A DNA stretch of 64,000 bases from Nitrosopumilus sp. (GCA_965197525.1 OZ240211.1:1-64000); one strand, 5' to 3'. Counted from the stretch's first letter, positions 33,687 through 52,227 are shown. Made by a program: numbers and translations. Notes: generated from the letters alone by a model not told the origin.

Positions 33687-33747
33687 ACTATTAAGTCTTC
33701 TTTGCCTACTGAAGGGAATTACATACTTGGATTACATTATACGTCAC

Positions 33748-33757
33748 TTATATATAA
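33748..33757 (+). promoter_or_regulatory. TATA box, reconstructed original tnpB promoter
   Basis: TTATATATAA would lie at about -29 to -20 from ATG 50600 once 33773-50595 is removed. Confidence 0.55.
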
Positions 33758-33772
33758 TACACAGACTATTAA

Positions 33773-35092
33773 CAGTTAACCCAAATGTCTCAAATTTGCC
33801 TGTTTTAAACACTATAAATCGTAAAAGCTATAAGACACTTCAAATGATATTGCATAGTGAACACAAACCACCTGAAGCGCAATATTAAAAATAACATACG
33901 CCTATTTCAAGATACCATTTCTGAGATCCAAACACAAGTGGAACCCTGTGTTCACATATCCAAGGCTGCCAACGCCACATATGATATCACGCATTTTATT
34001 ACCTGTATGATGAATGGTACTCTGAATGATGCATCTGTAAGTGGAAAGGCAGGCGATACACGTTTTGTAGGTGATGACCACTGCAGGCCAAAGGGAACAA
34101 GGCATTATCCCACGGGCGAATGGAACAGACTGATACTTGCCAAGATGAGTAAAAATGAGATTGAGAAATGCCTTGAAGATACGGTTAGAACTCAGATTGC
34201 AGTATTGGACAAAAACAGGTGGATTCCTGACAAAGGCATAGATATAGCGATAGATATGCACAAGATACTCAGGCACGACAAGAAATCAACTGGCGATCTA
34301 ATACATACAAAAGACAAGGGGCACGCAGGATACTATGAGAGATACATAACTGCACAATCAGTCACTTCAGGAATCAGACTGAATCTATGTGCGTATCACA
34401 TGCCTGCACTTGAATCCATAGACAATTTCGTGCGTAAAATCCTCGTTTCATGCCAAAATATTGGAGTCAAGATCAGATATGTCTTACTTGATCGCGAATT
34501 CTTCAACGCCAAAATTCTAGACATGATTGACAAGATGGGATTGTATTACATCACACCATGCAAGAATACGGATACTGTGGTACGATGTATAAGAAAATTC
34601 GATAAAGAGAACGGTCCTGCAGAATCCAAAGTTGAGATCGCAGGATATGATGGTACAGTAGCTGTATACCATATGATCATAGTGACAAGAAAGAAGAGAA
34701 AAAAGATCAAGAATCGCGAGCTCCGGCCGGAGGAGAGATACATCGGATTTTGCTACTAATCAACCCAGTGTAGACGTTGAGATCTATGCCAGCAGATGGG
34801 GCATAGAGACCGGCTACAGAATGTTAGAAAATATTAGAGCCAAAACCAAAAGCAAGAATTCTGCTGCCAGAATGTTCTGTTTTGTGTATTCTCTGTTGTT
34901 TTATAATGCGTGGGTGATGATCAACACGCTCTTATGGCGATCATGCATGGTTGGCTACGCCTAAAAAAACCGATAATCGCGCAGGGGATGATCAAAATAG
35001 CATTGGATAGAACGGTAACGAGATGATAATTCCGCCAGAGCCTCCACCTGACGCGATCTGGCCTTAGAATATGGAGACATTTGGGTTAACTG
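33773..35092 (+). mobile_element. ISH3-family IS, divergent copy (left arm of composite)
   Basis: Perfect 19-bp TIR CAGTTAACCCAAATGTCTC; own flanks ATTAA / ATCTA do not match each other. Confidence 0.9.
33857..35030 (+). pseudogene. ISH3 transposase, frameshifted
   Basis: IAIDMHKI, VLLDREFF; extra T in TTTT at ~34748 separates the YASRWGIETGYR-containing C-terminus. Confidence 0.85.
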
Positions 35093-35194
35093 ATCTATAA
35101 ACTTTATCTTAAATTCTACCATTTCTCGTCTGACATTCGCAAGCGCGCTTTTCAATTCTGCATTTTCTCTTCTCAGATCTGAGTTTTTGGCCAT
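35093..35194 (-). pseudogene. 5' fragment of a coiled-coil gene truncated by ISH3
   Basis: MAKNSDLRRENAELKSALANVRREMVEFKIKFID reads straight into the TIR (QLTQMS). Confidence 0.45.
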
Positions 35195-35380
35195 TTCTGA
35201 CTGTCGCCTTGATCGTTGACTTTATCATATTTGCCTTCCAAAAAACTACTATTTAGTAAGATTAGTTACAAAAATTTGGTAATACACAAAATAACCTACA
35301 TCAAATTTGACATAGAGATGCAACAAACTAATTTTCATGATTTAAACGCCTAAATGACGTGAACGCTTACCATTTTTGCG

Positions 35381-36422
35381 TCATTCCATCACGACAGCAC
35401 GTTGTAGCAGACGCGCCTGAGCAGCGGCCTTTGGACCCGCAGCGTCTTTGCGCAAATCATTGCAGTGAACATGACTTGAACGACGAGAACACGGACTATT
35501 ATACTGCACTGGTGGCACGTCTTCAAACTCTTCGGGGTTATTCTCCTGCCATCTGATCATCTCTGCCCTAGGACTGAATCCCCTTGCGACGTGGTTCTTG
35601 CAGGTGCAGATGACGGGTCTTCTGTCCGAGTCACGGATCATCTCGTAGTTCTTGTGTGCGTCATATCCTGCATCAAGCATCGCGCATCCGGTGCCGTCTG
35701 GAACATTCTCGAATCTCTCTCAGAATATGGGAGAGTCGTGCGCGTATCCTTTGGTGACTGCACAGGAGACGATCTTTCTTCCCTTGGAATCGACGATCAC
35801 GTATAATTTGACGAATTCGCGCCTGAAGACAAGTCCTCCTCTTGGCGTCTTCTTCCCAGTCTGCGTATTGGTTTATGGCAACCCCCGTGGAGTCGCCCAG
35901 AGGGAACCGCGCGCGTGGGATTCTGCCTGCCATTCCATTACTTTGTGCAGCCACCCATAATCTGCGATTACGGTGGCTGCGTGGCGCAGGCAGGATTTTG
36001 ATGGAGCGGTTTTTAATCCATACATGTGCAGTGTTCCCTGATGTGTCTGCAGGTATGAGACATGTTGACGGTATGAATGGCAGTAGAACTCCAGGTCTGT
36101 AAGGCATACCATGTATGGGATCATACGCACCTTGCCAGGGGGGTGTGGCAGATGGGTAGATTTCATACAGCAGGGCAGTGAGGGCCTTGATTTGCAATCT
36201 AGTTACGTGGCCCTCTCCCTCTCCCCCACCACTCCTCCATGTCTCGTATTCCTTGTAGTATCCGGCGGGGCGTTCCCATTTCTCGTCGTTGGGACTTGCT
36301 TTTGCATCGTTTCTTGCTCTTGCTGTGTTTCGTGTTTGTATCACGTTTTTTGTTCATCAAGCGGCGTGCGATCTGATCTTTGAGCTTTTCGCTGATTTTG
36401 AATCAAAAATTTGGACAACGCC
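35381..36422 (-). pseudogene. Degraded IS5-family transposase / IS remnant
   Basis: GDSTG, frameshifted RREFVKLYVIVDSKGRKIVSCAVT..HDS, MLDAGYD; possible end GGCGTTGTCCAA at 36411-36422. Confidence 0.75.
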
Positions 36423-36489
36423 GCTTGTAAATGTAAAAAAAGAATCATCAATGAGATTTTTTAAAATAGTATCTGAAAAACTAGATGCT

Positions 36490-39400
36490 TTAGGTGTTGT
36501 TCCCCATCACGTACTCTAATGCAACTCTAAACTCGTCTAGGGTTATCAGTCCTTTTACCACTAGTGGTGCAAGATCAGTCATGACCCAGGCAGGTATGTC
36601 TGCTCCCATGTGAGTCAGGCCCATAACAGCTAGCAGTTGATTGTCATCTGCTATCTCAGATTCAAATCCAGACCACATGCGCAGTACAAGCAATGCACGG
36701 TCATAGTCTGAGTCATCATCAAAAGTTTCAATCACAGGTTCTGGATTATCAGGTACTGCAGCAGGTGACCGGGGTTCTGGGTTCGCCTCTGCTACTTGGG
36801 GCTCTGGGTCTGCCTCCGTTGTTGCCTGGGGCTCTGGATCTACTTTTGAGGGTATGATGTTTAGCGCATCAACTATTATGACTATTGAAGACTGACGGTC
36901 TGCGTTCCAAGTTCTGATTACCATGTTGGTATTCCCTATCGCATCTGCAAACGTGATATCAAGTGCGACTGTCTTTTTATTGCGATCATCAGGGTCAGTT
37001 GATATAGTGATGGAGGCATCTGAGAACAGGTTATGAGGATCAACTATGTTGGTCTTGCCTCTGTTGTATTCCACGTATGTATCACTGTTCGTGTATGATA
37101 TGTCATCATCTTGCAGGTTCAGGTATACTGCAAAGTAGAGTATGTCAAGTCTGTCGTGTGCCGTAAAACTCATGGATATGGGTTGTTGGTCTACTGCAAC
37201 CTCCAGCGGCGTGGGATGATGGTTTACCCTGTTTTGAACATTGTAACTCTGGCCGTTTATCTCAAGTGTATCCACAGATGGTGGTGGTGCGGTACCTGAC
37301 TTTTTGGACTTGAGCAGTATGGTAGCATCAACAAATGATTCCAAAGGTTTGCCTGACTCGTCTACAACATTGCCTGTACCGCTGTCGTATGAGAGCGTGT
37401 CCCCACGAGACAGTGAACCGTCAAGTAGTAACGTAAGGGTGTTTGTGCCATTTCCGGTGATGGATTCCACTGTGACTGTACTACCAGAAGAAGAGGATAC
37501 TGTAAATCCGTTGAGGCCTGTTCCATTGATTTTGACTGGCTCAGAGAATGTCAGCGTTATAGAAGAGCCAGAGCCCCGTACAGATACAAGACGTGGAGCT
37601 ATGTCATTTACTGTAACTGATACCAGTTCAGATGCTGTGCCACCGTTACCATCCGAGACGGTCACATTAATGGAGTGTACACCGTCCTGGGACTGGTCAG
37701 GCCTCCAAGAGAACGAGCCTTCCCGGGTGATTGATGCACCACGTGGTATGTCCCCGTCAAGTGAGAATCTCAAAGAGTTAGGAGAGCCTTGATATATGTC
37801 GACGTCCCGGGCTGTTGCAGTAAACCTAAGCGTGTCTGTCTCATCTATGGTCTGTGCACCTATGGGATCAAGTCGTGGATTCTGATTTACCTCAGTTACA
37901 GTTATTGTGACGTTTTGCGAGTCTGTGCCTCCGTTACCATCAGAGACCTGTACGGTTATGGTGTGACGGCCATCCTGTGCCTCAGTTGGCGTCCATGAGA
38001 ACACTCCGGTGTTGGTATCCATCGCGGCACCGTCAGGTATCGGCTCGATAAGGGAGTATGTCCGGGCATCGTTATCATCAGGATCAGTTGCTTCAGCAGT
38101 GAATGTGAGGAGTGTAAGCTCATCTCCAGTCTGCGGTGAGATATTATTCAGTACGGGTAACTGGTTGACTGTGTAGGTCTCATTAGAGCCGATCACTGTC
38201 AGGTCAATCAGACTGTTGGTTGCAGTATCCTGTATGTCGTGGTTTTGTGCGATATCCAAGCCGATGGTTCCACTAGCGGTTACTGTGACTGTTACTCGGT
38301 ATGATGCACCGGAACCTGATACGCCAGATATTGTACCTGTACCGGAGCCCGTTACTGTAAAATCGGCATCATCCACATTGGTTACTGGTTCATCAAACGT
38401 GACAGCAAACACCAAGGTGGTATCAGTTGTGGATTGAGCTAGAGGGGTACCACGCAGTATGGAGGCAACGCGGGGCGGAGTGGTGTCTGTTACCGTGACT
38501 GTGTAGGTCTGATCAGAGCCGGTAGGTGCCAAGTTGGCCAAACGGTTGGTTGCGGTATCCTGTATGTCGTGGTTTTGTGCGATATCCAAGCCGATGGTTC
38601 CAACATTATCTACTGTGACTGTTACCCGGTATGATGCACCGGAACCTGATACGCCAGATATTGTGCCGGTGCCGGTGCCTGTTACTGTAAAATCGGCATC
38701 ATCCACATTGGTTACTGGTTCATCAAACGTGACAGCAAACACCAAGGTGGTATCAGTTGTGGATTGAGCTAGAGGGGTACCACGCAGTATGGAGGCAACG
38801 CGGGGCGGAGTGGTGTCTGTTACCGTAGTGCCTGTTACCGTAGTCTCTGTTACCGTGTAGGTCTGATCAGAGCCGGTAGGTGTCAGGTTGGCCAAACGGT
38901 TGGTTGCGGTATCCTGTATGTCGTGGTTTTGTGCGATATCCAAGCCGATGGTTCCAACATTATCTACTGTGACTGTTACTCGGTATGATGTACCGGAACC
39001 TGATACGCCAGATATTGTGCCGGTGCCGGTGCCTGTTACTGTAAAATCGGCATCATCCACATTGGTTACTGGTTCATCAAACGTGACAGCAAACACCAAG
39101 GTGGTATCAGTTGTGGATTGAGCTAGAGGGGTACCACGCAGTATGGAGGCAACGCGGGGCGGAGTGGTGTCTGTTACCGTGGGGGCGGTGGGATCAATAT
39201 CTTTGTTTTGCTCTACTTCCTTGTCAAGATATATGACATTGATGGCGCCGCGGTCTCGCCCGCTGTTATCATCTCGATAAGCACCAACTGCAAGGTCTGT
39301 CACCCCGTCGCCGTCAAGGTCGCCTATGGAAGCAACGGAGACGCCGAAATAGTCACTGTTTGATAGCGTGGGACCGTTTGTAGTGGAGTCGTTTATCTCT

Positions 39401-41958
39401 ACTGTGCTGTCTACCGTACCGTCAGTATTCATAAACATTATGTGTACTGCGCCGCGGTCTTGTCCGCTGTTATCATCTTGATAAGCACCAACTGCAAGGT
39501 CTGTCACCCCGTCGCCGTCAAAGTCGCCTATGGAAGCAACGGAGACGCCGAAATTGTCACTGTTTGATAGCGTGGGACCGTTTGTAGTGGAGTCGTTTAT
39601 CTCTACTGTGCTGTCTACCGTACCGTCAGTATTCATAAACATTATGTGTACTGCGCCGCGGTCTGATCCGCCGTTGTCATCTCCATAAGCACCAACTGCA
39701 AGGTCTGTCACCCCGTCGCCGTCAAGGTCGCCTATGGAAGCAACGGAGATGCCGAAATTATCATAGTTTAATAGCGTGGGACCGTTTGCAGTGGAGCTGT
39801 TTATCTCTACTGTGCTGTCTACCGTACCGTCAGTATTCATAAACATTATGTGTACTGCGCCGCGGTCTGATCCGCCGTTGTCATCTTGATAAGCACCAAC
39901 TGCAAGGTCTGTCACCCCGTCGCCGTCAAGGTCGCCTATGGAAGCAACGGAGATGCCGAAATTGTCACTGTTTGATAGCGTGGGACCGTTTGCAGTGGAG
40001 CTGTTTATCTCTACTGTGCTGTCTACCGTACCGTCAGTATTCATAAACATTATGTGTACTGCACCGCGCTCTGATCCGCCGCCGTTATCATCTTGATAAG
40101 CACCAACTGCAAGGTCTGTCACCCCGTCGCCGTCAAGGTCGCCTATGGCAGCAACGGAGATGCCGAAACGGTCACTGCTTGATAGCGTGGGACCGTTTGT
40201 AGTGGAGTCGTTTATCTCTACTGTGCTGTCTACCGTACCGTTTGTATTCATAAACATTATGTGTACTGCGCCGCTGTCTAGTTTGCTGTGGTCATCTCGA
40301 GCAGCACCAACTGCAAGGTCTGTCACCCCGTCGCCGTCAAGGTCGCCTATGGAAGTAACGGAGACGCCGAAACGGTCACTGTTTGATAGCGTGGGACCGT
40401 TTGTAGTGGAGTCGTTTATCTCTACTGTCCTGTCAACAATAAAGGCAACGCGGGGCGGAGTGGTGTCTGTTACCGTGGGAACTGACACATCGGTTACCGT
40501 GACGTCATAGGTGTCAAAAGCCGTGGCCCCGTCGTCGTCAGTAACAGTGAGGGTAAATGTAACTTGGGTGTCAGATGATACCTGTGACGCAGTGTACTGC
40601 AGGGTTGCTGCGTTACCGGACGTTATCGTAATAACAGATGTGTCATCCACGCTCCACGCGTATGTGGATATTGTACCATCAGAGTCAGAGGCAATACCCG
40701 TGAGCGTGCCGGATGCGCCCTCGTTGATTGTAGTGTCGCCGGTTATGCTGCTGATAGTTGGGGACTGGTTGGGGACTGGCACATTGTTTACCGTGACATC
40801 GTAGGTGGCAGATGCCGTGGCCCCGTCGTCGTCGGTAACAGTGAGGGTAAATGTAACTTGGGTGTCAGATGATACCTGTGATGCAGTGTATCGCAGGATA
40901 GCCGCATCGCCAGTCGTGATCGTGATAGTAGACGTATCATCCACGCTCCACAGGTACGAGGATATGTTGCCGTCAGAATCGGAGGCAATACCCGTGAGCG
41001 TGCCGGATGCGCCCTCGTTGATTGTAGTGTCGCCGGTTATGCTGCTGATAGTTGGGGACTGGTTGGGGACTGGCACATTGTTTACCGTGACATCGTAGGT
41101 GGCAGATGCCGTGGCCCCGTCGTCGTCGGTAACAGTGAGGGTAAATGTAACTTGGGTGTCAGATGATACCTGTGATGCAGTGTACTGCAGGGTTGCTGCG
41201 TTACCGGACGTTATCGTAATAACAGATGTGTCATCCACGCTCCACGCGTATGTGGATATTGTACCATCAGAGTCAGAGGCAGTGCCCGTGAGCGTGCCGG
41301 ATGCGCCCTCGTTGATTGTAGTGTCGCCGGTTATGCTGCTGATAGTTGGGGACTGGTTGGGGACTGGCACATTGTTTACCGTGACATCGTAGGTGGCAGA
41401 TGCCGTGGCCCCGTCGTCGTCGGTAACAGTGAGGGTAAATGTAACTTGGGTGTCAGATGATACCTGTGATGCAGTGTATCGCAGGATAGCCGCATCGCCA
41501 GTCGTGATCGTGATAGTAGACGTATCATCCACGCTCCACAGGTACGAGGATATGTTGCCGTCAGAATCGGAGGCAATACCCGTGAGCGTGCCGGATGCGC
41601 CCTCGTTGATTGTAGTGTCGCCGGTTATGCTGCTGATAGTTGGGGACTGGTTGGGGACTGGCACATTGTTTACCGTGACATCGTAGGTGGCAGATGCCGT
41701 GGCCCCGTCGTCGTCGGTAACAGTGAGGGTAAATGTAACTTGGGTGTCAGATGATACCTGTGATGCAGTGTACTGCAGGGTTGCTGCGTTACCGGACGTT
41801 ATCGTAATAACAGATGTGTCATCCACGCTCCACGCGTATGTGGATATTGTACCATCAGAGTCAGAGGCAGTGCCCGTGAGCGTGCCGGATGCGCCCTCGT
41901 TGATTGTAGTGTCGCCGGTTATGCTGCTGATAGTTGGGGACTGGTTGGGGACTGGCAC
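36490..41958 (-). CDS. C-terminal part of giant surface adhesin: PKD-like repeats, six FG-GAP repeats, three Ig-like repeats, two cadherin/He_PIG-like domains, conserved C-terminal domain
   Basis: ORF-track translation; begins inside a repeat with no signal peptide, so continuous with the upstream part. Confidence 0.85.
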   Translation of the reverse strand: MPVPNQSPTISSITGDTTINEGASGTLTGTASDSDGTISTYAWSVDDTSVITITSGNAATLQYTASQVSSDTQVTFTLTVTDDDGATASATYDVTVNNVPVPNQSPTISSITGDTTINEGASGTLTGIASDSDGNISSYLWSVDDTSTITITTGDAAILRYTASQVSSDTQVTFTLTVTDDDGATASATYDVTVNNVPVPNQSPTISSITGDTTINEGASGTLTGTASDSDGTISTYAWSVDDTSVITITSGNAATLQYTASQVSSDTQVTFTLTVTDDDGATASATYDVTVNNVPVPNQSPTISSITGDTTINEGASGTLTGIASDSDGNISSYLWSVDDTSTITITTGDAAILRYTASQVSSDTQVTFTLTVTDDDGATASATYDVTVNNVPVPNQSPTISSITGDTTINEGASGTLTGIASDSDGTISTYAWSVDDTSVITITSGNAATLQYTASQVSSDTQVTFTLTVTDDDGATAFDTYDVTVTDVSVPTVTDTTPPRVAFIVDRTVEINDSTTNGPTLSNSDRFGVSVTSIGDLDGDGVTDLAVGAARDDHSKLDSGAVHIMFMNTNGTVDSTVEINDSTTNGPTLSSSDRFGISVAAIGDLDGDGVTDLAVGAYQDDNGGGSERGAVHIMFMNTDGTVDSTVEINSSTANGPTLSNSDNFGISVASIGDLDGDGVTDLAVGAYQDDNGGSDRGAVHIMFMNTDGTVDSTVEINSSTANGPTLLNYDNFGISVASIGDLDGDGVTDLAVGAYGDDNGGSDRGAVHIMFMNTDGTVDSTVEINDSTTNGPTLSNSDNFGVSVASIGDFDGDGVTDLAVGAYQDDNSGQDRGAVHIMFMNTDGTVDSTVEINDSTTNGPTLSNSDYFGVSVASIGDLDGDGVTDLAVGAYRDDNSGRDRGAINVIYLDKEVEQNKDIDPTAPTVTDTTPPRVASILRGTPLAQSTTDTTLVFAVTFDEPVTNVDDADFTVTGTGTGTISGVSGSGTSYRVTVTVDNVGTIGLDIAQNHDIQDTATNRLANLTPTGSDQTYTVTETTVTGTTVTDTTPPRVASILRGTPLAQSTTDTTLVFAVTFDEPVTNVDDADFTVTGTGTGTISGVSGSGASYRVTVTVDNVGTIGLDIAQNHDIQDTATNRLANLAPTGSDQTYTVTVTDTTPPRVASILRGTPLAQSTTDTTLVFAVTFDEPVTNVDDADFTVTGSGTGTISGVSGSGASYRVTVTVTASGTIGLDIAQNHDIQDTATNSLIDLTVIGSNETYTVNQLPVLNNISPQTGDELTLLTFTAEATDPDDNDARTYSLIEPIPDGAAMDTNTGVFSWTPTEAQDGRHTITVQVSDGNGGTDSQNVTITVTEVNQNPRLDPIGAQTIDETDTLRFTATARDVDIYQGSPNSLRFSLDGDIPRGASITREGSFSWRPDQSQDGVHSINVTVSDGNGGTASELVSVTVNDIAPRLVSVRGSGSSITLTFSEPVKINGTGLNGFTVSSSSGSTVTVESITGNGTNTLTLLLDGSLSRGDTLSYDSGTGNVVDESGKPLESFVDATILLKSKKSGTAPPPSVDTLEINGQSYNVQNRVNHHPTPLEVAVDQQPISMSFTAHDRLDILYFAVYLNLQDDDISYTNSDTYVEYNRGKTNIVDPHNLFSDASITISTDPDDRNKKTVALDITFADAIGNTNMVIRTWNADRQSSIVIIVDALNIIPSKVDPEPQATTEADPEPQVAEANPEPRSPAAVPDNPEPVIETFDDDSDYDRALLVLRMWSGFESEIADDNQLLAVMGLTHMGADIPAWVMTDLAPLVVKGLITLDEFRVALEYVMGNNT
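38170..39180 (-). repeat. Three near-identical Ig-like domain repeats (DTTPPRVASILRGTPLAQ...)
   Basis: Repeated ~320-350 bp blocks. Confidence 0.85.
39230..40430 (-). repeat. Six FG-GAP/integrin-like repeats
   Basis: Six GD(L/F)DGDGVTDLAVGA motifs. Confidence 0.88.
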
Positions 41959-42720
41959 ATTGTTTACCGTGACATCGTAGGTGGCAGATGCCGTGGCCCC
42001 GTCGTCGTCGGTAACAGTGAGGGTAAATGTAACTTGGGTGTCAGATGATACCTGTGATGCAGTGTACTGCAGGGTTGCTGCGTTACCGGACGTTATCGTA
42101 TGTGGATATAACAGATAGTGTCATCCACGCTCCACGCGTATGTGGATATTGTACCATCAGAGTCAGAGGCAGTCAGTGAGGGTAAATGTAACTTGGGTGT
42201 CAGATGATACCTGTGATGCAGTGTACTGCAGGGTTGCTGCGTTACCGGACGTTATCGTAATAACAGATGTGTCATCCACGCTCCACGCGTATGTGGATAT
42301 TGTACCATCAGAGTGAGGCAGTGCCCGTGAGCGTGCCTGATGTGCCCTCGTTGATTGTAGTGTCGCCGGTTATGCTGCTGATAGTTGGGGACTGGTTGGG
42401 GACTGGCACATTGTTTACCGTGACATCGTAGGTGGCAGATGCCGTGGCCCCGTCGTCGTCGGTAACAGTGAGGGTAAATGTAACTTGGGTGTCCGAGGAT
42501 ACCTGTGATGCAGTGTATCGCAGGATAGCCGCATCGCCAGTCGTGATCGTGATAGTAGACGTATCATCCACGCTCCACAGGTACGAGGATATGTTGCCGT
42601 CAGAATCGGAGGCAATACCCGTGAGCGTGCCTGATGCGCCCTCGTTGATTGTAGTGTTACCGGTTATGCTGCTAATAGTTGGGGGCTGGTTGGGAACGGT
42701 AAATATCTCAATGTTCTTGT
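40490..42720 (-). repeat. 294-bp tandem PKD-like repeats alternating between two variants
   Basis: Shadow ORFs recur at 294-bp spacing (40511, 40805, 41099, 41393, 41687); TISTYAWS vs NISSYLWS variants alternate. Confidence 0.9.
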
Positions 42721-45700
42721 TCTGCGCAAGGGATCCGAATGCCCCGGGCGGGTTAAAGTCAAACATTACAGCAGGATCCGGGAGGAGAGGGATTACGTCC
42801 CTGCCTGGGCTCTTAAGGGCAGTGATCGTTGCCCCCCCCATCTCACCGTCAGGCGACAGTGAGTTTTGTGCAACATACTGGAGATCAGAGGATACGTCCG
42901 TACTCTGTGGCGCGTACCTGAAGGTAAGGATGTCGGTGCCGCTACCGGACAGATAGGGGGCCGTTCTGTGTTGTGGACTGACATCAAGCGTGAGTCGGGG
43001 CGTTCCGGTTACGGCCACTGGTTCTGAAAATTTGACTGTAATATCGACTGTCTGGCTTGATCCGTACGTGCCGTCTGCAGTGGTGGAGGACACGGCGCGG
43101 ATCAATACATCCTTGTCAAAGTACATGATGTGCACGGTGCCGTGATCCGTCCCGCCGTGGTCGTCGCCCCAAGCGCCTGCGGCAAGGTCCGGCACCCCGT
43201 CGCCGTCAAGGTCGCCTATTGCCGCGACGGATGCGCCAAAAAAGTCATCGTCTGACAGTACGGGGCCGTTTGCAGTGGAGTCGTTTATCTCGACTGTACC
43301 CTTTACCGTGCCGTTACCGTTCATGAACATGACGTGCACGGCGCCGTGATCCGTCCCGCCGTTGTCGTCGCCATCAGCGCCTACGGCAAGGTCCTGCACC
43401 CCGTCGCCGTCAAGGTCGCCTATTGCCGCGACGGATATGCCAAAATAGTCCTCGTCTGACAGTACGGGGCCGTTTGCAGTGGAGTCGTTTATCTCGACTG
43501 TACCCTTTACCGTGCCGTTACCGTTCATGAACATGACGTGCACGGCGCCGCGGCCCGGCCCGCCGTTGTAGTTGCCCCAAGCGCCTACGACAAGGTCTTG
43601 CACTCCGTCGCCGTCAAGGTCGCCTATTGCCGCGACGGATGCGCCAAAATAGTCCTCGTCTGACAGTACGGGGCCGTTTGCAGTGGAGTCGTTTATCTCA
43701 ACTGTGCCCTTTACAGAGCCGTTACCGTTCATGAACATGACGTGCACGGCGCCGCGGCCTTCCCCGCCGTTGCTGTCGCCATTAGCGCCTGCGGCAAGGT
43801 CCGGCACCCCGTCGCCGTCAAGGTCGCCTATTGCCGCGACGGATGTGCCAAAAAAATCATTGTTTGATAGTACGGGGCCGTTTGCAGTGGAGTTGTTTAT
43901 CTCGACTGTATCCTTTACAGAGCCGTTACCGTTCATGAACATGACGTGCACGGCGCCGTGATCCGTCCCGCCGTTGTCGTCGCCATTAGCGCCTACGGCA
44001 AGGTCCTGCACCCCGTCGCCGTCAAGGTCGCCTATTGCCGCGACGGATCTGCCAAAACCGTCATCGTCTGACAGTACGGGGCCGTTTGCAGTGGAGTTGT
44101 TTATCTCGACTGTGCCCTTTACAGAGCCGTTACCGTTCATGAACATGACGTGCACGGCGCCGCGCTTCTCCCCGCCGTCGTCATCTCCCTGAGCACCAAC
44201 TGCAAGGTCTGTCACCCCGTCGCCGTCAAGGTCGCCTATTGCCGCGACGGATCCGCCAAAATAGTCATAGTCTGACAGTACGGGGCTGTTTGCGGTGGAG
44301 TCGTTTATCTTGACCGTATCCTTTACAGAGCCGTTACCGTTCATGAACATGACGTGCACGGTGCCGTGATCCGTCCCGCCGTGGTCGTCGCCCCAAGCGC
44401 CTGCGGCAAGGTCCTGCACCCCGTCGCCGTCAAGGTCGCCTATTGCCGCGACGGATGCGCCAAAAAAGTCATCGTCTGACAGTACGGGGCCGTTTGCAGT
44501 GGAGTCGTTTATCTCGACCGTATCCTTTACAGAGCCGTCGCGGTTCATGAACATGACGTGCACGGCGCCGTGATCCGTCCCGCCGTTGTCGTCGCCATCA
44601 GCGCCTACGGCAAGGTCCTGCACCCCGTCGCCGTCAAGGTCGCCTATTGCCGCGACGGATATGCCAAAATAGTCCTCGTCTGACAGTACGGGGCCGTTTG
44701 CAGTGGAGTCGTTTATCTCGACTGTACCCTTTACCGTGCCGTTACCGTTCATGAACATGACGTGCACGGCGCCGCGGCCCGGCCCGCCGTTGTAGTTGCC
44801 CCAAGCGCCTACGACAAGGTCTTGCACTCCGTCGCCGTCAAGGTCGCCTATTGCCGCGACGGATGCGCCAAAATAGTCCTCGTCTGACAGTACGGGGCCG
44901 TTTGCAGTGGAGTCGTTTATCTCAACTGTGCCCTTTACAGAGCCGTTACCGTTCATGAACATGACGTGCACGGCGCCGCGGCCTTCCCCGCCGTTGCTGT
45001 CGCCATTAGCGCCTGCGGCAAGGTCCGGCACCCCGTCGCCGTCAAGGTCGCCTATTGCCGCGACGGATGTGCCAAAAAAATCATTGTTTGATAGTACGGG
45101 GCCGTTTGCAGTGGAGTTGTTTATCTCGACTGTATCCTTTACAGAGCCGTTACCGTTCATGAACATGACGTGCACGGCGCCGTGATCCGTCCCGCCGTTG
45201 TCGTCGCCATTAGCGCCTACGGCAAGGTCCTGCACCCCGTCGCCGTCAAGGTCGCCTATTGCCGCGACGGATCTGCCAAAACCGTCATCGTCTGACAGTA
45301 CGGGGCCGTTTGCAGTGGAGTTGTTTATCTCGACTGTGCCCTTTACAGAGCCGTTACCGTTCATGAACATGACGTGCACGGCGCCGCGCTTCTCCCCGCC
45401 GTCGTCATCTCCCTGAGCACCAACTGCAAGGTCTGTCACCCCGTCGCCGTCAAGGTCGCCTATTGCCGCGACGGATCCGCCAAAATAGTCATAGTCTGAC
45501 AGTACGGGGCTGTTTGCGGTGGAGTCGTTTATCTTGACCGTATCCTTTACAGAGCCGTTACCGTTCATGAACATGACGTGCACGGTGCCGTGATCCGTCC
45601 CGCCGTGGTCGTCGCCCCAAGCGCCTGCGGCAAGGTCTGTCACCCCGTCGCCGTCAAGGTCGCCTATTGCCGCGACGGATGCGCCAAAAAAGTCATCGTC

Positions 45701-48310
45701 TGACAGTACGGGGCCGTTTGCAGTGGAGTCGTTTATCTCGACCGTATCCTTTACAGAGCCGTCGCGGTTCATGAACATGACGTGCACGGCGCCGTGATCC
45801 GTCCCGCCGTTGTCGTCGCCATCAGCGCCTACGGCAAGGTCCTGCACCCCGTCGCCGTCAAGGTCGCCTATTGCCGCGACGGATATGCCAAAATAGTCCT
45901 CGTCTGACAGTACGGGGCCGTTTGCAGTGGAGTCGTTTATCTCGACTGTACCCTTTACCGTGCCGTTACCGTTCATGAACATGACGTGCACGGCGCCGCG
46001 GCCCGGCCCGCCGTTGTAGTTGCCCCAAGCGCCTACGACAAGGTCTTGCACTCCGTCGCCGTCAAGGTCGCCTATTGCCGCGACGGATGCGCCAAAATAG
46101 TCCTCGTCTGACAGTACGGGGCCGTTTGCAGTGGAGTCGTTTATCTCGACTGTACCCTTTACCGTGCCGTTACCGTTCATGAACATGACGTGCACGGCGC
46201 CGCGGCCTTCCCCGCCGTTGCTGTCGCCATTAGCGCCTGCGGCAAGGTCCGGCACCCCGTCGCCGTCAAGGTCGCCTATTGCCGCGACGGATGTGCCAAA
46301 AAAATCATTGTTTGATAGTACGGGGCCGTTTGCAGTGGAGTTGTTTATCTCGACTGTATCCTTTACAGAGCCGTTACCGTTCATGAACATGACGTGCACG
46401 GCGCCGTGATCCGTCCCGCCGTTGTCGTCGCCATTAGCGCCTACGGCAAGGTCCTGCACCCCGTCGCCGTCAAGGTCGCCTATTGCCGCGACGGATCTGC
46501 CAAAACCGTCATCGTCTGACAGTACGGGGCCGTTTGCAGTGGAGTTGTTTATCTCGACCGTATCCTTTACAGAGCCGTTACCGTTCATGAACATGACGTG
46601 CACGGCGCCGCGCTTCTCCCCGCCGTCGTCATCTCCCTGAGCACCAACTGCAAGGTCTGTCACCCCGTCGCCGTCAAGGTCGCCTATTGCCGCGACGGAT
46701 CCGCCAAAATAGTCATAGTCTGACAGTACGGGGCTGTTTGCGGTGGAGTCGTTTATCTCTACTGTGTTGTCGACAGAGCCGTTTCCATTGGTTTTCATGC
46801 CATTAATGTGGATTATGTGTACGGCGCCGCGGTCTGATCCGCCCTCGTCATCTTGATAAGCACCAACTGCAAGGTCTGTCACCCCGTCGCCGTCAAGGTC
46901 GCCTATGGAAGCAACGGAGACGCCGAAACTGTCATCGTCTGATAGCGTGGGACCGTTTGTAGTGGAATCGTTTATCTCTACTGTGCTGTTTATCGTACCG
47001 TCAGTATTCATAAACATTATGTGTACGGCGCCGCGCTCTGATCCGCCGTCGCCGTCATCTTGATAAGCACCAACTGCAAGGTCTGTCACCCCGTCGCCGT
47101 CAAGGTCGCCTATGGAAGCAACGGAGACGCCGAAATAGTCAACGTTTGATAGCGTGGGACCGTTTGCAGTGGAGTCGTTTATCTCTACTGTGCTGTTTAT
47201 CGTACCGTCAGTATTCATAAACATTATGTGTACGGCGCCGCGGTCTCGTCCGCGGTCGTCATCTCGATTAGCACCAACTGCAAGGTCTGTCACCCCGTCG
47301 CCGTCAAGGTCGCCTATGGAAGCAACGGAGGCGCCGAAATAGTCAACGTTTGATAGCGTGGGACCGTTTGCAGTGGAGTCGTTTATCTCTACTGTGCTGT
47401 CTACCGTACCGTCAGTATTCATAAACATTATGTGTACTGCGCCGCGGTCTGATCCGCTGTCGTCATCTCGATTAGCACCAACTGCAAGGTCTGTCACCCC
47501 GTCGCCGTCAAGGTCGCCTATGGAAGCAACGGAGGCGCCGAAGCGGTCAACGTCTGATAGCGTGGGACCGTTTGCAGTGGAGTCGTTTATCTCTACTGTG
47601 CTGTCTACCGTACCGTCAGTATTCATAAACATTATGTGTACTGCGCCGCGGTCTCGTCCGCCGCCGTCATCTCGAGCAGCACCAACTGCAAGGTCTGTCA
47701 CCCCGTCGCCGTCAAGGTCGCCTATGGAAGCAACGGAGACGCCGAAACGGTCATTGTCTGATAGCGTGGGACCGTTTGCAGTGGAGCTGTTTATCTCTAC
47801 TGTGCTGTCTACCGTACCGTCAGTATTCATAAACATTATGTGTACTGCGCCGCGGTCTGATCCGCCGCCGTCATCTCGAGCAGCACCAACTGCAAGGTCT
47901 GTCACCCCGTCGCCGTCAAGGTCGCCTATGGGAGTAACGGAGAAGCCGAAGCGGTCAACGTCTGATAGCGTGGGACCGTTTGCAGTGGAGCTGTTTATCT
48001 CCACTACGGAGTTTGGATACGCGTTGTTTGATGCGTACGCAGTATCCACACCAAAGCTTAGATGTATGTCGTGTATGCCAGGGGTGTGAACCGATAGCAC
48101 GAGGCTTGCGATGCCGTCGCACTGATAGTCCTCAAACGTAATGATCCCATCATGTGCTGTAGCATCCAGTATGGAGTCGTTGCCGCACAATACCCCCACA
48201 AACCCCACGTCGTCAGGAGAAGAGTCCCCAAACGTGGTGCCGTTTATTACAGAGATTGTTAGGTTATGGGTACCGTATGTCCTAAAGTTTATCGTCCACT
48301 CCCCGCCCAC
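42308..48310 (-). CDS. Central part of giant surface adhesin with 24 FG-GAP repeats
   Basis: 24 GDLDGDGV.DL..GA motifs (6 + 3x6), N-terminal unique domain, then PKD-like repeats. Confidence 0.87.
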   Translation of the reverse strand: MGGEWTINFRTYGTHNLTISVINGTTFGDSSPDDVGFVGVLCGNDSILDATAHDGIITFEDYQCDGIASLVLSVHTPGIHDIHLSFGVDTAYASNNAYPNSVVEINSSTANGPTLSDVDRFGFSVTPIGDLDGDGVTDLAVGAARDDGGGSDRGAVHIMFMNTDGTVDSTVEINSSTANGPTLSDNDRFGVSVASIGDLDGDGVTDLAVGAARDDGGGRDRGAVHIMFMNTDGTVDSTVEINDSTANGPTLSDVDRFGASVASIGDLDGDGVTDLAVGANRDDDSGSDRGAVHIMFMNTDGTVDSTVEINDSTANGPTLSNVDYFGASVASIGDLDGDGVTDLAVGANRDDDRGRDRGAVHIMFMNTDGTINSTVEINDSTANGPTLSNVDYFGVSVASIGDLDGDGVTDLAVGAYQDDGDGGSERGAVHIMFMNTDGTINSTVEINDSTTNGPTLSDDDSFGVSVASIGDLDGDGVTDLAVGAYQDDEGGSDRGAVHIIHINGMKTNGNGSVDNTVEINDSTANSPVLSDYDYFGGSVAAIGDLDGDGVTDLAVGAQGDDDGGEKRGAVHVMFMNGNGSVKDTVEINNSTANGPVLSDDDGFGRSVAAIGDLDGDGVQDLAVGANGDDNGGTDHGAVHVMFMNGNGSVKDTVEINNSTANGPVLSNNDFFGTSVAAIGDLDGDGVPDLAAGANGDSNGGEGRGAVHVMFMNGNGTVKGTVEINDSTANGPVLSDEDYFGASVAAIGDLDGDGVQDLVVGAWGNYNGGPGRGAVHVMFMNGNGTVKGTVEINDSTANGPVLSDEDYFGISVAAIGDLDGDGVQDLAVGADGDDNGGTDHGAVHVMFMNRDGSVKDTVEINDSTANGPVLSDDDFFGASVAAIGDLDGDGVTDLAAGAWGDDHGGTDHGTVHVMFMNGNGSVKDTVKINDSTANSPVLSDYDYFGGSVAAIGDLDGDGVTDLAVGAQGDDDGGEKRGAVHVMFMNGNGSVKGTVEINNSTANGPVLSDDDGFGRSVAAIGDLDGDGVQDLAVGANGDDNGGTDHGAVHVMFMNGNGSVKDTVEINNSTANGPVLSNNDFFGTSVAAIGDLDGDGVPDLAAGANGDSNGGEGRGAVHVMFMNGNGSVKGTVEINDSTANGPVLSDEDYFGASVAAIGDLDGDGVQDLVVGAWGNYNGGPGRGAVHVMFMNGNGTVKGTVEINDSTANGPVLSDEDYFGISVAAIGDLDGDGVQDLAVGADGDDNGGTDHGAVHVMFMNRDGSVKDTVEINDSTANGPVLSDDDFFGASVAAIGDLDGDGVQDLAAGAWGDDHGGTDHGTVHVMFMNGNGSVKDTVKINDSTANSPVLSDYDYFGGSVAAIGDLDGDGVTDLAVGAQGDDDGGEKRGAVHVMFMNGNGSVKGTVEINNSTANGPVLSDDDGFGRSVAAIGDLDGDGVQDLAVGANGDDNGGTDHGAVHVMFMNGNGSVKDTVEINNSTANGPVLSNNDFFGTSVAAIGDLDGDGVPDLAAGANGDSNGGEGRGAVHVMFMNGNGSVKGTVEINDSTANGPVLSDEDYFGASVAAIGDLDGDGVQDLVVGAWGNYNGGPGRGAVHVMFMNGNGTVKGTVEINDSTANGPVLSDEDYFGISVAAIGDLDGDGVQDLAVGADGDDNGGTDHGAVHVMFMNGNGTVKGTVEINDSTANGPVLSDDDFFGASVAAIGDLDGDGVPDLAAGAWGDDHGGTDHGTVHIMYFDKDVLIRAVSSTTADGTYGSSQTVDITVKFSEPVAVTGTPRLTLDVSPQHRTAPYLSGSGTDILTFRYAPQSTDVSSDLQYVAQNSLSPDGEMGGATITALKSPGRDVIPLLPDPAVMFDFNPPGAFGSLAQNKNIEIFTVPNQPPTISSITGNTTINEGASGTLTGIASDSDGNISSYLWSVDDTSTITITTGDAAILRYTASQVSSDTQVTFTLTVTDDDGATASATYDVTVNNVPVPNQSPTISSITGDTTINEGTSGTLTGTASL
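43100..46760 (-). repeat. Three near-identical 1224-bp units, each six FG-GAP repeats
   Basis: Identical landmarks at 43683/44907/46131 and 44281/45505/46729. Confidence 0.92.
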
Positions 48311-48353
48311 TACAGGATAGGACTGCGGGTTGAGTACGTCGATTCGCCCGTAC

Positions 48354-48566
48354 TCACGGTTCAGAAAACTGGCTGCCGACTGCTGTATCTCTGAGGTAGT
48401 TACCGTTACAGGTGTGGGGGGGGGGGCTGTCAGTTATCGTGATCACAGGGTCAGTCATATAGGCAGACGCAAAACTGACATCATAGTACTGGAACAGTAA
48501 CAAAGATACAGTCACTACCACAATGGCCATGACTGTCATAGTATGATGAATTCTTAATGTATTCAT
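48354..48566 (-). pseudogene. Signal-peptide-encoding 5' end of the giant adhesin, out of frame at a C11 tract
   Basis: Hydrophobic leader ending SFA-SAY; removing one C at 48416-48426 gives PPPTPVTVTTSEIQQSAASFLNREYGRIDVLNPQSYPVVGGEWTINF, joining ORF 42308-48310. Confidence 0.8.
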
Positions 48567-48870
48567 ATCACATTCCCACCATTATCATACAATAATCCAC
48601 AGGGACTATTTAAAAAGATTGTATATTCAACTCTGTTTCCTAATTACATGCAACACAGACACCCATCTGTGTGATTTTGCTTATGTCATTGCCTTCCCTC
48701 CTACACTGCGGTCTTTGTGGCGGGTTTTAGACTGATACACTATCTTTGGTGTGCCGTAGTATTCCCATTGGATAATAGCTCATTTTGACTATACACATTT
48801 TGTATGTGTTTACATCGTACTTGGAAAAATAAGAGATGTTCCCACAGTGTGTTAAACTTATGCCTAAATC

Positions 48871-50590
48871 CAGTTAACCCAAAAGTGAGCCTAATCTAAC
48901 GTCTAAAAATCAATGCGGTGCTTTCAAATATCGTCATCTTTGAGAAAAAGACAGGCTTGATGGCTATTGCGTATAGTTTAAAGATCCGTCTGCAGACAAG
49001 ACCGAACATGACAGCCTAATCTTCAGAAAAAGTACTGGCTTTTCTGATACTAGATGTATCAAACATTTTAAAAATATGAACAGTTTTTTATCCTATCTAT
49101 TTGTACATCTAACAGAACGTCTGAAATTTGATGTTTGATGTACGTCGTAGATGTCTAGTACGAACACAGCGATCCGATGTCAGGCGGCGTCTTATAGCGC
49201 GGTTCGTGCCGGGCAAGCACGGTTATTATCTCGATTCGCAGATGTGTCTGCGTCATGCGTTTTGTGTTCTTGTCTGCCGGCTTGGATGTCGCAGACATCA
49301 TCGCATTTATCATCACCCAAGCATTGAACATTACCACAGAGTACAAAAAGCAGAATATCCTGGATACGGTCTTGTTGCTGCGCGTCCGCGCCCTCATCTC
49401 TTCTATCATGCGGTATCCCGTCTCTATGCCCCATCTCTTGGAGTACAGTTCGGCATCCTGAATAGGCATGTTGGTGGCAAATCCGATGAACTCTTCTTCT
49501 GGACGTGTATGCACATCGTCTGATTTTTCCCCACTGCTGCTTTTCTTCCTCTTCCTCTTCTTCTTCTTCTTACGCTCGGTTATGATTATGGTATACTTTA
49601 CTGACACTCCGTCGGCATTTGTGATGTATAGACTCGATACCGCCTTCCGTCTTCCCGCAACAAATTCTGCGATTGCATCCACTACGACATCTGTGTTCTT
49701 GCACGGTACAAGGTAGCCCACATCCATCTTCTCAAGGGCCTCAAAGACACGAGTGGAAAAGAATTCGCGGTCAAGCAATACGGCCCTGATATTACATCCC
49801 ACACTGCGGCATATTGCAATCAGGTCGCGTACAAAACCAGGAACATCCTCAAGTGCTCCCATGTGTAGGACTCCCAGTACAAGACGCGGTCCGCCGTCAA
49901 CGCACTGCGCTGTGATGTACCTCTCAAACGTCCCGGTTCCATTATTTCTTCTTGAACGCGTCAGATCGATGCCGGGTTCTTTGTCCCATCGCGGGATCAG
50001 GTGCATATCTATTGCAATTACCATGCCTTCGTTTGAAACCTGTCCGAGTGCGCGCACCGCATCAAGCTGCAGGCGCACAGAATTGGCAAAATCTTTCATC
50101 ATCTCAGTCCTGTCAATCTTGGCAAGAAGTCCGTTGAACCATTCGTCAGTGGGTGATGATGCCCGATGATGCGTTCCTGCACCCGTACTCCACTCAATAT
50201 GATTCCGTACCGCCGAAGCCGTGGCCCCTACAGAAGAGCCGTTGACTGTAGCCCACATCATGCCCCTGTTAAAGTCGTCAAGCCCGTATGTCCTGTTGGG
50301 GCTGTCCGATATTTTGATGCACGAGCAGATGCTGTCCTCGGCTGCCCTTACTGCTGCATCACTGCGCCTTTTATGCTGGCCGAACCATGATGATGAGAGA
50401 CGAATGTTTTGATTTGACACGTCATATTGTCATAAAAGTTATTTTTATGGTATTGTATTAGGCATTGCATAGAATTATGTCAAAATTTGTTCAGGCATGA
50501 AGTGGTGCTGGTACACAACAAAGGCAGTTGTTAATTTCATATGTGTTAAGGGAAATGATTCATATGAATTGCTTACTTTTGGGTTAACTG
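48871..50590 (-). mobile_element. ISH3-family IS, copy 2 (right arm of composite), near-identical to copy 1
   Basis: Same TIRs and internal sequence as 20001-21714; flanks AAATC / ATTAA unmatched. Confidence 0.92.
49155..50420 (-). CDS. ISH3-family DDE transposase (intact)
   Basis: 421 aa, nearly identical to 20285-21544. Confidence 0.9.
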   Translation of the reverse strand: MSNQNIRLSSSWFGQHKRRSDAAVRAAEDSICSCIKISDSPNRTYGLDDFNRGMMWATVNGSSVGATASAVRNHIEWSTGAGTHHRASSPTDEWFNGLLAKIDRTEMMKDFANSVRLQLDAVRALGQVSNEGMVIAIDMHLIPRWDKEPGIDLTRSRRNNGTGTFERYITAQCVDGGPRLVLGVLHMGALEDVPGFVRDLIAICRSVGCNIRAVLLDREFFSTRVFEALEKMDVGYLVPCKNTDVVVDAIAEFVAGRRKAVSSLYITNADGVSVKYTIIITERKKKKKRKRKKSSSGEKSDDVHTRPEEEFIGFATNMPIQDAELYSKRWGIETGYRMIEEMRARTRSNKTVSRIFCFLYSVVMFNAWVMINAMMSATSKPADKNTKRMTQTHLRIEIITVLARHEPRYKTPPDIGSLCSY

Positions 50591-50599
50591 ATTAACTGG

Positions 50600-52168
50600 A
50601 TGGAAAAAGAAATAGAAGATTTTATTTATAGAACAGTGATTGTAAAACCAAGGCAGACAAAAGAACTGTCATTGAAGGCACGCAGGATTGCAAACTTTCA
50701 GACGTATTTTTTCAACATGGGCGTAGAGGCAGGACTGGTTGAAAAATATGACAAAATCAAGACAAGCCGTACCATTACTGACATACATCACACCATGCCA
50801 TGGAGCAACAGATATCACACCAATGTGGCAACAACTGCGTTCCAACAGGGGCATGATACGGCAGACAAACATTTGAAATCCTGCGCAAAAAAACGCAGAG
50901 TACGAAACTGGGCAAAAAAGACTGGTGACAAGAACCACAACTGGCACACGTCATTTAAAAATCTCAAACCAAACAAATGGATTGACAGAAACAGTTTGTT
51001 CAGAAACGCCAAAAATGCAAAACATGCATCCATAACAGTAAACGGTAAGCATCCCTCGCTAAGGATGGGAAAGTGGAAAAAACTGTACATGAATCTGCCT
51101 GGTATGGGTCAGGTGGAGCTGTTGTCGTCTTTGAATAATCTTCCAAAGCAACTGGCATGTGAAAGAGACAAAAACAGCACTAGCAAATTCTACCAGACCA
51201 ACATTGTATCATACAGGCTTGTAGAGAACACCAAAAAAATCACTGTCAATACAAACGATTCGAACCGCACGTTTGAGATCCATCTGACACTAAAAATACA
51301 GAGACCTAAAAATACGGATCGTACAGTCGTATGCGGAATAGACATGGGGGTTAAGAGATCCCTAGTCGTTCATGACGGAATAAATGCCGATTTTTACAGG
51401 ACACCTTATTCCTGTAGGAGAAAGAAAGACGATGTAGTCTCAGAACAACAGTCAAAAAGAGACGGCCACAAACTGCATAGTAACAGATGGAAAAAAGAGG
51501 ATCGCAAACTGAAGAGGATGAAGAAAACACTCAACAACAGAAGAACCGAGCACAATAATTTCCTTGCCAAACAGATTGTGATGAGAACAGGAGTGATAGT
51601 CATGGAAAAACTAAACATTGGCAATATGACTGCAAAAAATGAAAAGCGGAAAAGCGGCCTTAACAGGGAGATTTACGGGGCAGGTATGGGAAGAATGGGG
51701 GATAGAATAAAAATGACTGCCGAAAACCACGGAACCAAAACGCTTGAGATTGTTCCGCATTATACCAGCATAACGTGTAGTAAGTGCAATATGATCAACA
51801 GCAACTCTAGAACTACCAGGGATGCGTTTCAATGCGTATACTGTGGATTTTTGTGCGATGCAGACGATAACGCCAGCACAAACATCAGACATTACGGACT
51901 TCCGTGCATACGAAGGCTCCCGCTTGTAGACAGATATGGAAACTACAGGTGTGACAGCATGGAAAATATTATTTTAGCTAATAAAAATGGCACATCTAAT
52001 AGTGTCAGTGTTATTAGGGGCGGTAGGGATTATCGTCACAAGACAGAAGAATCAAAATATGGCTTACACCATGTTGTTTCTAAAAAAGACGGCAAGAACC
52101 AAGCTGTGAATGATTTGTTGGACTGTCAGAAAAAAACCTTGGTGTATAAATGTAACCTAGGTATATAA
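50600..52168 (+). CDS. tnpB: TnpB-family RNA-guided nuclease, 522 aa, RuvC triad intact
   Basis: RuvC-I GIDMG, RuvC-II VMEKL, PHYTSITCSKC / CVYCG zinc finger, RuvC-III DADDNAS; stop codon lies inside the right TIR. Confidence 0.9.
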   Translation: MEKEIEDFIYRTVIVKPRQTKELSLKARRIANFQTYFFNMGVEAGLVEKYDKIKTSRTITDIHHTMPWSNRYHTNVATTAFQQGHDTADKHLKSCAKKRRVRNWAKKTGDKNHNWHTSFKNLKPNKWIDRNSLFRNAKNAKHASITVNGKHPSLRMGKWKKLYMNLPGMGQVELLSSLNNLPKQLACERDKNSTSKFYQTNIVSYRLVENTKKITVNTNDSNRTFEIHLTLKIQRPKNTDRTVVCGIDMGVKRSLVVHDGINADFYRTPYSCRRKKDDVVSEQQSKRDGHKLHSNRWKKEDRKLKRMKKTLNNRRTEHNNFLAKQIVMRTGVIVMEKLNIGNMTAKNEKRKSGLNREIYGAGMGRMGDRIKMTAENHGTKTLEIVPHYTSITCSKCNMINSNSRTTRDAFQCVYCGFLCDADDNASTNIRHYGLPCIRRLPLVDRYGNYRCDSMENIILANKNGTSNSVSVIRGGRDYRHKTEESKYGLHHVVSKKDGKNQAVNDLLDCQKKTLVYKCNLGI

Positions 52169-52227
52169 TTCCCCTACTGAATATTATCACAAACAGCTTT
52201 TTTAAATGGCGATACAAACCATTGATT

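Follow-up and report, generated by a model that had tools for sequence, protein, structure and literature searches.

The DNA considered here is the first 64 kb of the genome of a Nitrosopumilus sp. (GCA_965197525.1, OZ240211.1:1-64000), a single contig of 2,210,164 bp with 39.6% G+C; we call this whole stretch of 64,000 nucleotides the window. The genome encodes an archaeal AmoA (2e-116), and McrA, for which the genome was searched, was not found; the host is therefore an ammonia-oxidising archaeon. Our subject is a unit of 16,818 bp at 33773-50590, in which two insertion sequences (ISs) of the ISH3 type, IS-A and IS-B, enclose a cargo of about 13.8 kb: the remnant of an IS5-family element, a gene for a giant FG-GAP/PKD surface protein and small repeats. 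The unit itself sits inside another mobile element, one that carries a tnpB gene. Junction sequences were read directly, and the terminal motifs were then located across the whole genome.

Organisation of the locus

From left to right, the features are as follows.

33706-33713, no strand: left copy of the 8-bp target duplication of the tnpB element, CTACTGAA; an identical octamer stands at 52174-52181
33714-33767, plus strand: left end of the tnpB element, with a terminal inverted repeat beginning GGGAATTACATAC and also a TATA-like tatataat; six other copies match it at their left ends with 95-98% identity
33768-33772, no strand: ATTAA, left copy of the 5-bp target-site duplication of the unit; single in six intact copies of the tnpB element
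33773-35092, plus strand: IS-A, ISH3-type, 1320 bp, left arm, with a perfect 19-bp inverted repeat CAGTTAACCCAAATGTCTC (ends read, profile searches)
35093-35372, no strand: spacer of 280 nt between IS-A and the IS5 remnant, its inner flank beginning ATCTA; the junction is identical at a second locus
35373-36489, minus strand: degenerate IS5-family element with a broken transposase, right after the stop codon of the surface-protein gene; DNA copies elsewhere are 74-85% identical
36490-48566, minus strand: giant surface-protein gene with FG-GAP/PKD/immunoglobulin-like repeats, ~12.1 kb, ~4,000 codons, in three frame pieces (Pfam, frame analysis)
48632-48758, no strand: dispersed repeat of ~128 nt upstream of the surface-protein gene, with copies of 94-96% identity near 77286, 937067 and 1063009
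48871-50590, minus strand: IS-B, ISH3-type, 1720 bp, right arm, with inverted repeat CAGTTAACCCAAAAGT(G/A)AGC (ends read, profile searches)
50591-50595, no strand: ATTAA, right copy of the 5-bp target-site duplication of the unit (sequence read)
50596-52173, plus strand: remainder of the tnpB element with the intact tnpB open reading frame (ORF) at 50600-52168, 522 aa (Pfam and NCBIfam; 95-98% identical to six copies)
52174-52181, no strand: right copy of the 8-bp target duplication of the tnpB element, CTACTGAA (sequence comparison)

The two arms are inverted in the manner of Tn5 and Tn10, as the original prediction for this DNA had it: the IS-A transposase lies on the plus strand and that of IS-B on the minus strand, both reading inward, and an inverted-repeat search finds the DNA similarity left between the arms to be in inverted orientation. 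The arms are different ISs, with transposases 37% identical over 311 residues. That much of an earlier assignment to two ISH3 subfamilies stands, "subfamilies" being an informal term. A third element in the window serves as a point of reference.

20001-21714, minus strand: IS copy 1, a solo element of the IS-B type, 1714 bp, with an intact 419-aa transposase and ATAAT on both sides (sequence read)

The same terminus, CAGTTAACCCAAA, opens all six ends of IS copy 1, IS-A and IS-B, and it also occurs on a second copy of IS-A (1471269-1472591) and on a 422-nt fragment of IS-B (1459849-1460270), to which we return below. The outer ends of IS-A and IS-B have the same 13 first bases, differ at base 14, match at bases 15-16 and then diverge, so that 15 of the first 16 bases are identical at the outer ends of the unit. 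Hence the two arms do share a terminus despite their divergent transposases.

The pentamer ATAAT on either side of IS copy 1 is the clean 5-bp target-site duplication that had been noted for it. Neither arm has a duplication of its own, again as predicted: IS-A stands between ATTAA (outer) and ATCTA (inner), IS-B between AAATC (inner) and ATTAA (outer). The outer flanks, at 33768-72 and 50591-95, are one and the same pentamer.

The target site

By BLAST against the genome, the 60 nt to the left of IS-A and the 1.58 kb to the right of IS-B are parts of one repeated element of ~1.64 kb, with tnpB as its sole gene. The tnpB product matches OrfB_IS605 and the Cas12f1-like TNB domain in Pfam and the NCBIfam model guided_TnpB with 119.5 bits, above the cut-off of 100. 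The element begins with GGGAATTAC and ends with ATAATTCCC; it has terminal inverted repeats and an 8-bp duplication, unlike IS200/IS605-type elements, and flanking duplications are present at other copies too. Since these ends and this 8-bp duplication belong to the element itself, it was resident before the unit landed in it.

The genome has about seven copies of this element with 94-98% identity (545.6, 562.5, 874.7, 879.5, 1030.8, 1332.9 and 1613.5 kb). In six of these, near 545, 562, 874, 879, 1030 and 1332 kb, the match to the left flank and the match to the right flank overlap by exactly 5 nt, a single ATTAA; in the printed alignment every intact copy reads ...cacagactATTAActggatggaaaaag... 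with one ATTAA. When the outer flanks are joined with one ATTAA removed, the sequence of these six copies is recovered base for base across the junction, which bears out the expectation that joining the flanks would restore the tnpB element. Put differently, the locus in the window equals the sequence of an intact copy plus 16,818 bp plus a second ATTAA, placed 4 bp before the ATG of tnpB. The tnpB ORF is now 16.8 kb away from its own upstream end; this copy of the element has a SUI1 gene as its neighbour.

An estimate of the chance of an ATTAA/ATTAA match had been suggested as a check. The probability that two random pentamers agree in this genome is 0.0013, and 0.035 when only pentamers of A and T count as targets. 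Because a multi-copy element is exactly restored, coincidence of the two flanks is negligible.

Taken together, the lack of an own duplication at either arm, the ATTAA outside the pair and the single ATTAA in six paralogues lead to one insertion of 16.8 kb. We regard it as highly probable that 33773-50590 is a composite (compound) transposon that was inserted into the tnpB element as one unit.

A second copy of the unit

The claim that the composite moved as a unit, borne out by the duplication and by the empty site in six paralogues, draws on a second copy at 1.46-1.47 Mb as well. This copy (1459849-1472591) is decayed but colinear with the one in the window: it has IS-A, the same inner junction, the IS5 remnant, the surface-protein gene and an IS-B arm. 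Window positions 33773-38497, which run from IS-A across its inner junction and the IS5 remnant into the 3' end of the surface-protein gene, are 98.1% identical to 1472591-1467861. Past 38497 the alignment continues at 94%, then at 87% in the repeat arrays and at 95% in the leader and upstream region, and then reaches the end of IS-B. The surface-protein gene of the second locus has a frameshift of its own, different from those in the window. What can be read directly in the genome is thus fourfold: the junctions, the target duplication, the restored tnpB element and the second copy.

Over the 422 nt that remain of the second IS-B, the two IS-B arms are sisters relative to IS copy 1: they have 13 sites in common, compared with 4 and 2 for the alternative pairings. 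This speaks for joint copying of the IS-B arm and the cargo. Neither of the two loci stands out as the donor. A donor scar was sought via paralogues of the inner flanks of IS-A and IS-B and none was found; the inner flank of IS-A is homologous to a sequence at 1437 kb, but the homology starts only ~55 nt inward, and at 1967 kb a paralogue of the inner flank of IS-B continues across the insertion point. The IS-B end of the second locus belongs to a dense nest of four IS families at 1457005-1460270.

The insertion sequences

The transposase gene of IS-A is split by a frameshift, one extra T in the run of four at 34748-34751. A 300-aa ORF (33857-34759) is followed in another frame by a C-terminal piece (34686-34964); the ~70 codons of this piece that contain YASRWGIETGYR, including the catalytic glutamate, lie past the frameshift. 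The second IS-A copy at 1471269-1472591 is 99.1% identical with 12 differing positions, and it has the same frameshift along with further disruptions of the frame. No intact gene of the IS-A type was found elsewhere in the genome by BLAST. IS-B encodes an uninterrupted transposase of 421 aa (49155-50420) with the DDE residues and YSKRWGIETGYR, and IS-B and IS copy 1 are 97.2% identical. The intact transposase of IS copy 1 likewise has the DDE residues. IS copy 1 is a possible source of transposase in trans.

An element of 110 nt at 1505146-1505255 is bounded by inverted repeats CAGTTAAGCGAAATGT that resemble the ends of IS-A. It has no obvious duplication and is a candidate miniature inverted-repeat transposable element (MITE) derived from this IS group.

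As to family, all three transposases match DDE_Tnp_1 in Pfam. For each the best NCBIfam model is that of the ISH3 family, NF033541, with 121.9, 119.8 and 61.8 bits, all below the cut-off of 225. The ISH3 family has been defined by termini CRGT, direct repeats of 4-5 bp, a length of 1225-1500 bp and archaeal hosts, with a transposase motif Y-(2)-R-(3)-E-(3)-(R) replacing the full YREK motif (De Palmenaer et al. 2008, PMC2266710). Our elements resemble this family in several respects. CAGT starts all the ends, in agreement with CRGT; the duplications are of 5 bp (ATAAT for IS copy 1, ATTAA for the composite); the host is an archaeon; and Y-(2)-R-(3)-E-(3)-R is found as YSKRWGIETGYR in IS-B and IS copy 1 and as YASRWGIETGYR in the shifted frame of IS-A. 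They differ from it in length, IS-A (1320 bp) being within the range but IS-B (1720 bp) and IS copy 1 (1714 bp) above it, and in scores well under the NF033541 cut-off. Because ISH3 is the best-scoring NCBIfam family and yet the scores fall below the cut-off, "ISH3-type" or "ISH3-related" is the most fitting name for the elements.

A third ISH3-like element has left terminal remnants, ~200 nt long and ending CAGCTAA(C/G)CGAAATGT, that are scattered over the genome:

Window 22517-22730: remnant of the third ISH3-like element
Genome 1964726-1964923: remnant of the same element
Genome 980897-980999: remnant of the same element
Genome 1472599-1472700: remnant of the same element
Genome 1458400-1458514: remnant of the same element

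The window is rich in ISs in other places too. A perfect 30-nt inverted repeat occurs with its halves 1.6 kb apart (16616-18297), and inverted repeats of up to 85 nt, 84-95% identical and ~2 kb apart, occur at 54388-56750. Both segments are probably other IS elements.

The cargo

The cargo had been described as a ~12-kb FG-GAP/PKD gene. The gene is indeed present, but in three frame pieces, and it is accompanied by the IS5 remnant and the small repeats. Its Pfam matches are FG-GAP (1e-163), K319L-like PKD (7e-57), Big_9 and He_PIG, and it holds about thirty repeats of 204 nt. The pieces are a leader from 48566 to ~48354, an ORF at 42308-48310 and an ORF at 36490-41958; the breaks lie at a G11 tract (48416-48426) and within 42120-42310. 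The G11 tract (C11 on the coding strand), just after the leader, throws the gene in the window out of frame, whereas the tract at the second locus (1460474-1460500) is interrupted and 5 nt longer and keeps the frame. The break at the tract could reflect phase variation, a real mutation or a homopolymer miscall. Within 42120-42310 there are several frame changes, in a partly duplicated PKD unit. With interruptions at two or more places, the moved gene may be a pseudogene or a gene in the phase-off state.

The protein has a hydrophobic N-terminal leader, and no C-terminal anchor or sorting signal, PEFG-type or other, was found with the NCBIfam models. "Adhesin" is a reasonable label for such a predicted surface protein. 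It belongs to a family of six giant FG-GAP/PKD genes in this genome (2093525-2096860, 1869076-1871727, 1460334-1469856, 856644-859127, 983060-987721 and 36490-48566 in the window), whose C-terminal 900 aa are 79-97% identical; one paralogue has an uninterrupted frame of 3872 codons. In three of the six (the window, 987.7 kb and 2096.9 kb) the same IS5-family remnant follows directly past the stop codon. It appears from this common remnant that earlier duplications of the surface-protein gene also took IS DNA along. A related IS5 copy at 328516-329541 has an intact ORF of 342 aa that matches the NCBIfam IS5 model with 7e-33, below the cut-off.

The repeat of ~128 nt upstream of the surface-protein gene in the window is missing at the second locus. 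It is possibly a MITE. The cargo holds other small repeat fragments as well.

A probable course of events

If the unit moved as a composite transposon, the following steps can be envisaged. A DDE transposase would have paired the outward ends of IS-A and IS-B and brought the whole unit into the resident tnpB element, at a point 4 bp ahead of the start codon of tnpB. There the repair of a staggered cut of 5 bp at ATTAA would have given the flanking direct repeat. By analogy with IS4-related families (PMC2266710), the chemistry would be cut-and-paste. The persistence of two copies would then call for repair from the sister chromosome or for transposition after replication. The insertion would have cut off tnpB from its upstream end and from the TATA-like box, and the genome would have gained or relocated one member of its six-member family of giant surface-protein genes.

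Which enzyme was responsible? The best candidate, and in our opinion a fairly probable one, is the intact transposase of the type found in IS-B and IS copy 1, acting in cis or provided by IS copy 1, because the IS-A gene is frameshifted before the catalytic glutamate in both of its copies. If one enzyme moved both unlike arms, it had to accept one foreign end. Mixed-end use by one transposase, which the original prediction had put forward, is thus plausible; we infer it from the broken genes of IS-A and the intact ones of IS-B and IS copy 1.

The alternative is that the move was catalysed by a once-intact IS-A transposase, or by both enzymes, and not by an enzyme of the IS-B type acting on a foreign end. 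The frameshift in IS-A is a single extra T, which could be young and may have spread by gene conversion, and the 19-bp inverted repeats of IS-A are perfect. Set against this are the presence of the same frameshift in both IS-A copies despite 12 other differences and the lack of an intact gene of this type in the genome. Moreover, an IS-A enzyme acting alone would still have to accept a heterologous end, in this case that of IS-B. We consider this alternative unlikely, although it deserves to be kept in mind.

Other ways to arrive at the locus

The composite transposon has also to be weighed against explanations in which the unit never moved as such. One of them is that the assembly is wrong: repeats were misjoined, and the 16.8-kb unit is not contiguous in the chromosome. 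The region is highly repetitive, with ~thirty 204-nt repeats, six surface-gene paralogues and IS copies 97-99% identical. A misjoin would, however, have to fall inside the 13-16 bp common to the termini of IS-A and IS-B. The two copies of the composite differ by 1-2% throughout and are distinguishable, and paralogue frames of several thousand codons, such as that of 3872 aa, point to a good assembly. An artefact is in our view very unlikely.

Another suggestion is that a solo IS was inserted at ATTAA first, and that recombination or gene conversion with the 1.46-Mb locus then brought in the cargo and the other arm, one crossover lying within the IS and the other within the 13-16 bp of shared terminal repeat. 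Gene conversion does take place in archaea that have several copies of their genome. The 1.46-Mb locus could serve as a homologous donor, and the different inner junction of IS-B indicates that the two loci were not kept identical. The difficulty is that a crossover would be needed in no more than 16 bp of homology, exactly at an IS terminus, while composite transposition accounts for every junction in one step. The window also has a sequence adjoining IS-B that is missing at the second locus, and therefore the second locus in its present form cannot have been the template. These points leave conversion highly improbable.

The chance that IS-A and IS-B were inserted separately, with ATTAA matching by coincidence or through a shared hot-spot preference, is vanishingly small: ISH3-type elements do prefer A/T-rich pentamers, which would match in ~3.5% of cases if targets were A/T-only, but each arm would then be expected to have its own duplication, which neither has, and the flanks are the halves of one tnpB element that meet at a single ATTAA in six intact paralogues.

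An inversion between the inverted arms was also considered and rejected. It would have swapped the flanks as reverse complements, and the pairs ATTAA/ATCTA and AAATC/ATTAA do not fit this.

Several observations count against the insertion of a composite transposon as we have described it. At the second locus, IS-B adjoins the upstream region ~106 nt nearer to the gene than in the window, where the 128-nt repeat is present in addition. Since the inner IS-B junction differs between the loci, separate arrivals of the two IS-B arms, or a later deletion next to the junction, are conceivable. The IS-B fragment was trimmed to its 422 nt by an IS630-type element (DDE_3 and helix-turn-helix ORFs), which lies next to an IS110-type element. 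The second IS-A has its outer end within the final ~100 nt of another ISH3-like remnant, and the other part of this remnant is inverted and 14 kb away, beside IS110 and IS630 elements; the split remnant suggests an IS-mediated inversion. A target duplication was sought at the second locus and none is recognisable. Only a single clean event is visible. In addition, its junctions are those of the assembled sequence, its empty site is that of paralogues within this genome, and the frameshift of IS-A may have passed from one IS-A copy to the other at some time later than the move.

Distribution in other genomes

The original prediction went on to propose that the adhesin had been spread among archaea. 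The movement documented here is movement within this genome only. In samples of the genus with one genome per species, IS-A DNA was not found in 40 relatives; among 150 genomes no transposase of the IS-B type exceeded 49% identity; and among 120 genomes the closest homologue of the C-terminal part of the surface protein reached at most 47%. No close relatives were therefore seen in these sets of 40-151 genomes. ISH3-like transposases as such (E <= 1e-60) occur in 10 of 151 species-representative genomes, this one included, mostly in larger genomes and often in many copies.

In a scan of genome contigs the only relative of the IS-B transposase was a fragment at a contig end in a Nitrosopumilus metagenome-assembled genome, 77% identical and with the same terminus. 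The protein database has IS-B-type transposases 89-96% identical on other ENA contigs. A search of metagenomes for the adhesin in other chromosomal contexts had further been suggested; two metagenome scans gave nothing useful. Nor did a role in host interaction find support: with amoA present and mcrA not found, the organism is an ammonia oxidiser. Transfer between organisms is not shown, and the locus is silent on host interaction.

What the locus does show is how, in an ammonia oxidiser, IS activity reshapes a group of related genes for giant surface proteins rich in repeats. If the composite transposon is correct, IS-bounded units may have multiplied this family. It would also mean that two diverged ISs with only ~16 common terminal bases can behave as one unit, and the locus is a natural substrate for asking what length of terminal repeat an ISH3 transposase needs.

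Comparison with known systems

Composite transposons are a textbook route by which ordinary genes become mobile in bacteria. The closest classical parallels to the unit described here are Tn5 and Tn10, with their inverted IS50 or IS10 arms of the IS4 family. As in these, inverted IS arms surround passenger DNA, one target duplication surrounds the whole unit and none surrounds an individual arm, one arm is defective (IS50L and IS10L there, IS-A here), and the enzyme belongs to the IS4-related DDE transposases (Pfam DDE_Tnp_1; PMC2266710). Here, though, the arms are unlike ISs with transposases 37% identical, while those of Tn5 and Tn10 are near-identical. The duplication is of 5 bp instead of 9, the host is an archaeon, and the cargo encodes a surface protein and not resistance.

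Unlike arms have a precedent in Tn1547, a vanB element of Enterococcus faecalis with arms IS16 and an IS256-like element (Quintiliani and Courvalin 1996, as cited in PMC4438569). According to that citation, Tn1547 is likewise a composite with two different members of one IS family as arms; it differs in being bacterial, in involving the IS256 family and in carrying resistance.

Among ammonia-oxidising archaea, a putative composite transposon with amoAB has been described on the soil thaumarchaeal fosmid 19c08 (Bartossek et al. 2012, PMC3379541). There too, two ISs bracket cellular genes that were proposed to be co-mobilisable. The arms in that case are near-identical copies of an unclassified IS, and the genes between them are in synteny with other genomes; neither a target duplication nor an empty site was demonstrated, and mobility is only possible, whereas here an insertion is documented. 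A reference also mentions engineered composite transposons of haloarchaea. A survey of thaumarchaeal mobile elements from 2019 detected no composite transposons with passenger genes in archaea, and reported ISH3 elements in a single thaumarchaeal species (PMC6563490).

Seen against these systems, the composite transposon in the window is well supported and mechanistically ordinary, and of a kind rarely documented in archaea. We suggest only tentatively, and with some doubt, that it may be the first natural archaeal composite with passenger DNA to be documented by a duplication, a reconstructed empty site and a second copy, and to have been mobilised by one ISH3-type transposase that cross-recognises the ends of a 37%-identical IS. 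Since composites with unlike arms are already known from Tn1547, the locus adds a clean case from the archaea, with a minor twist in its mechanism, and is not a new type of system.

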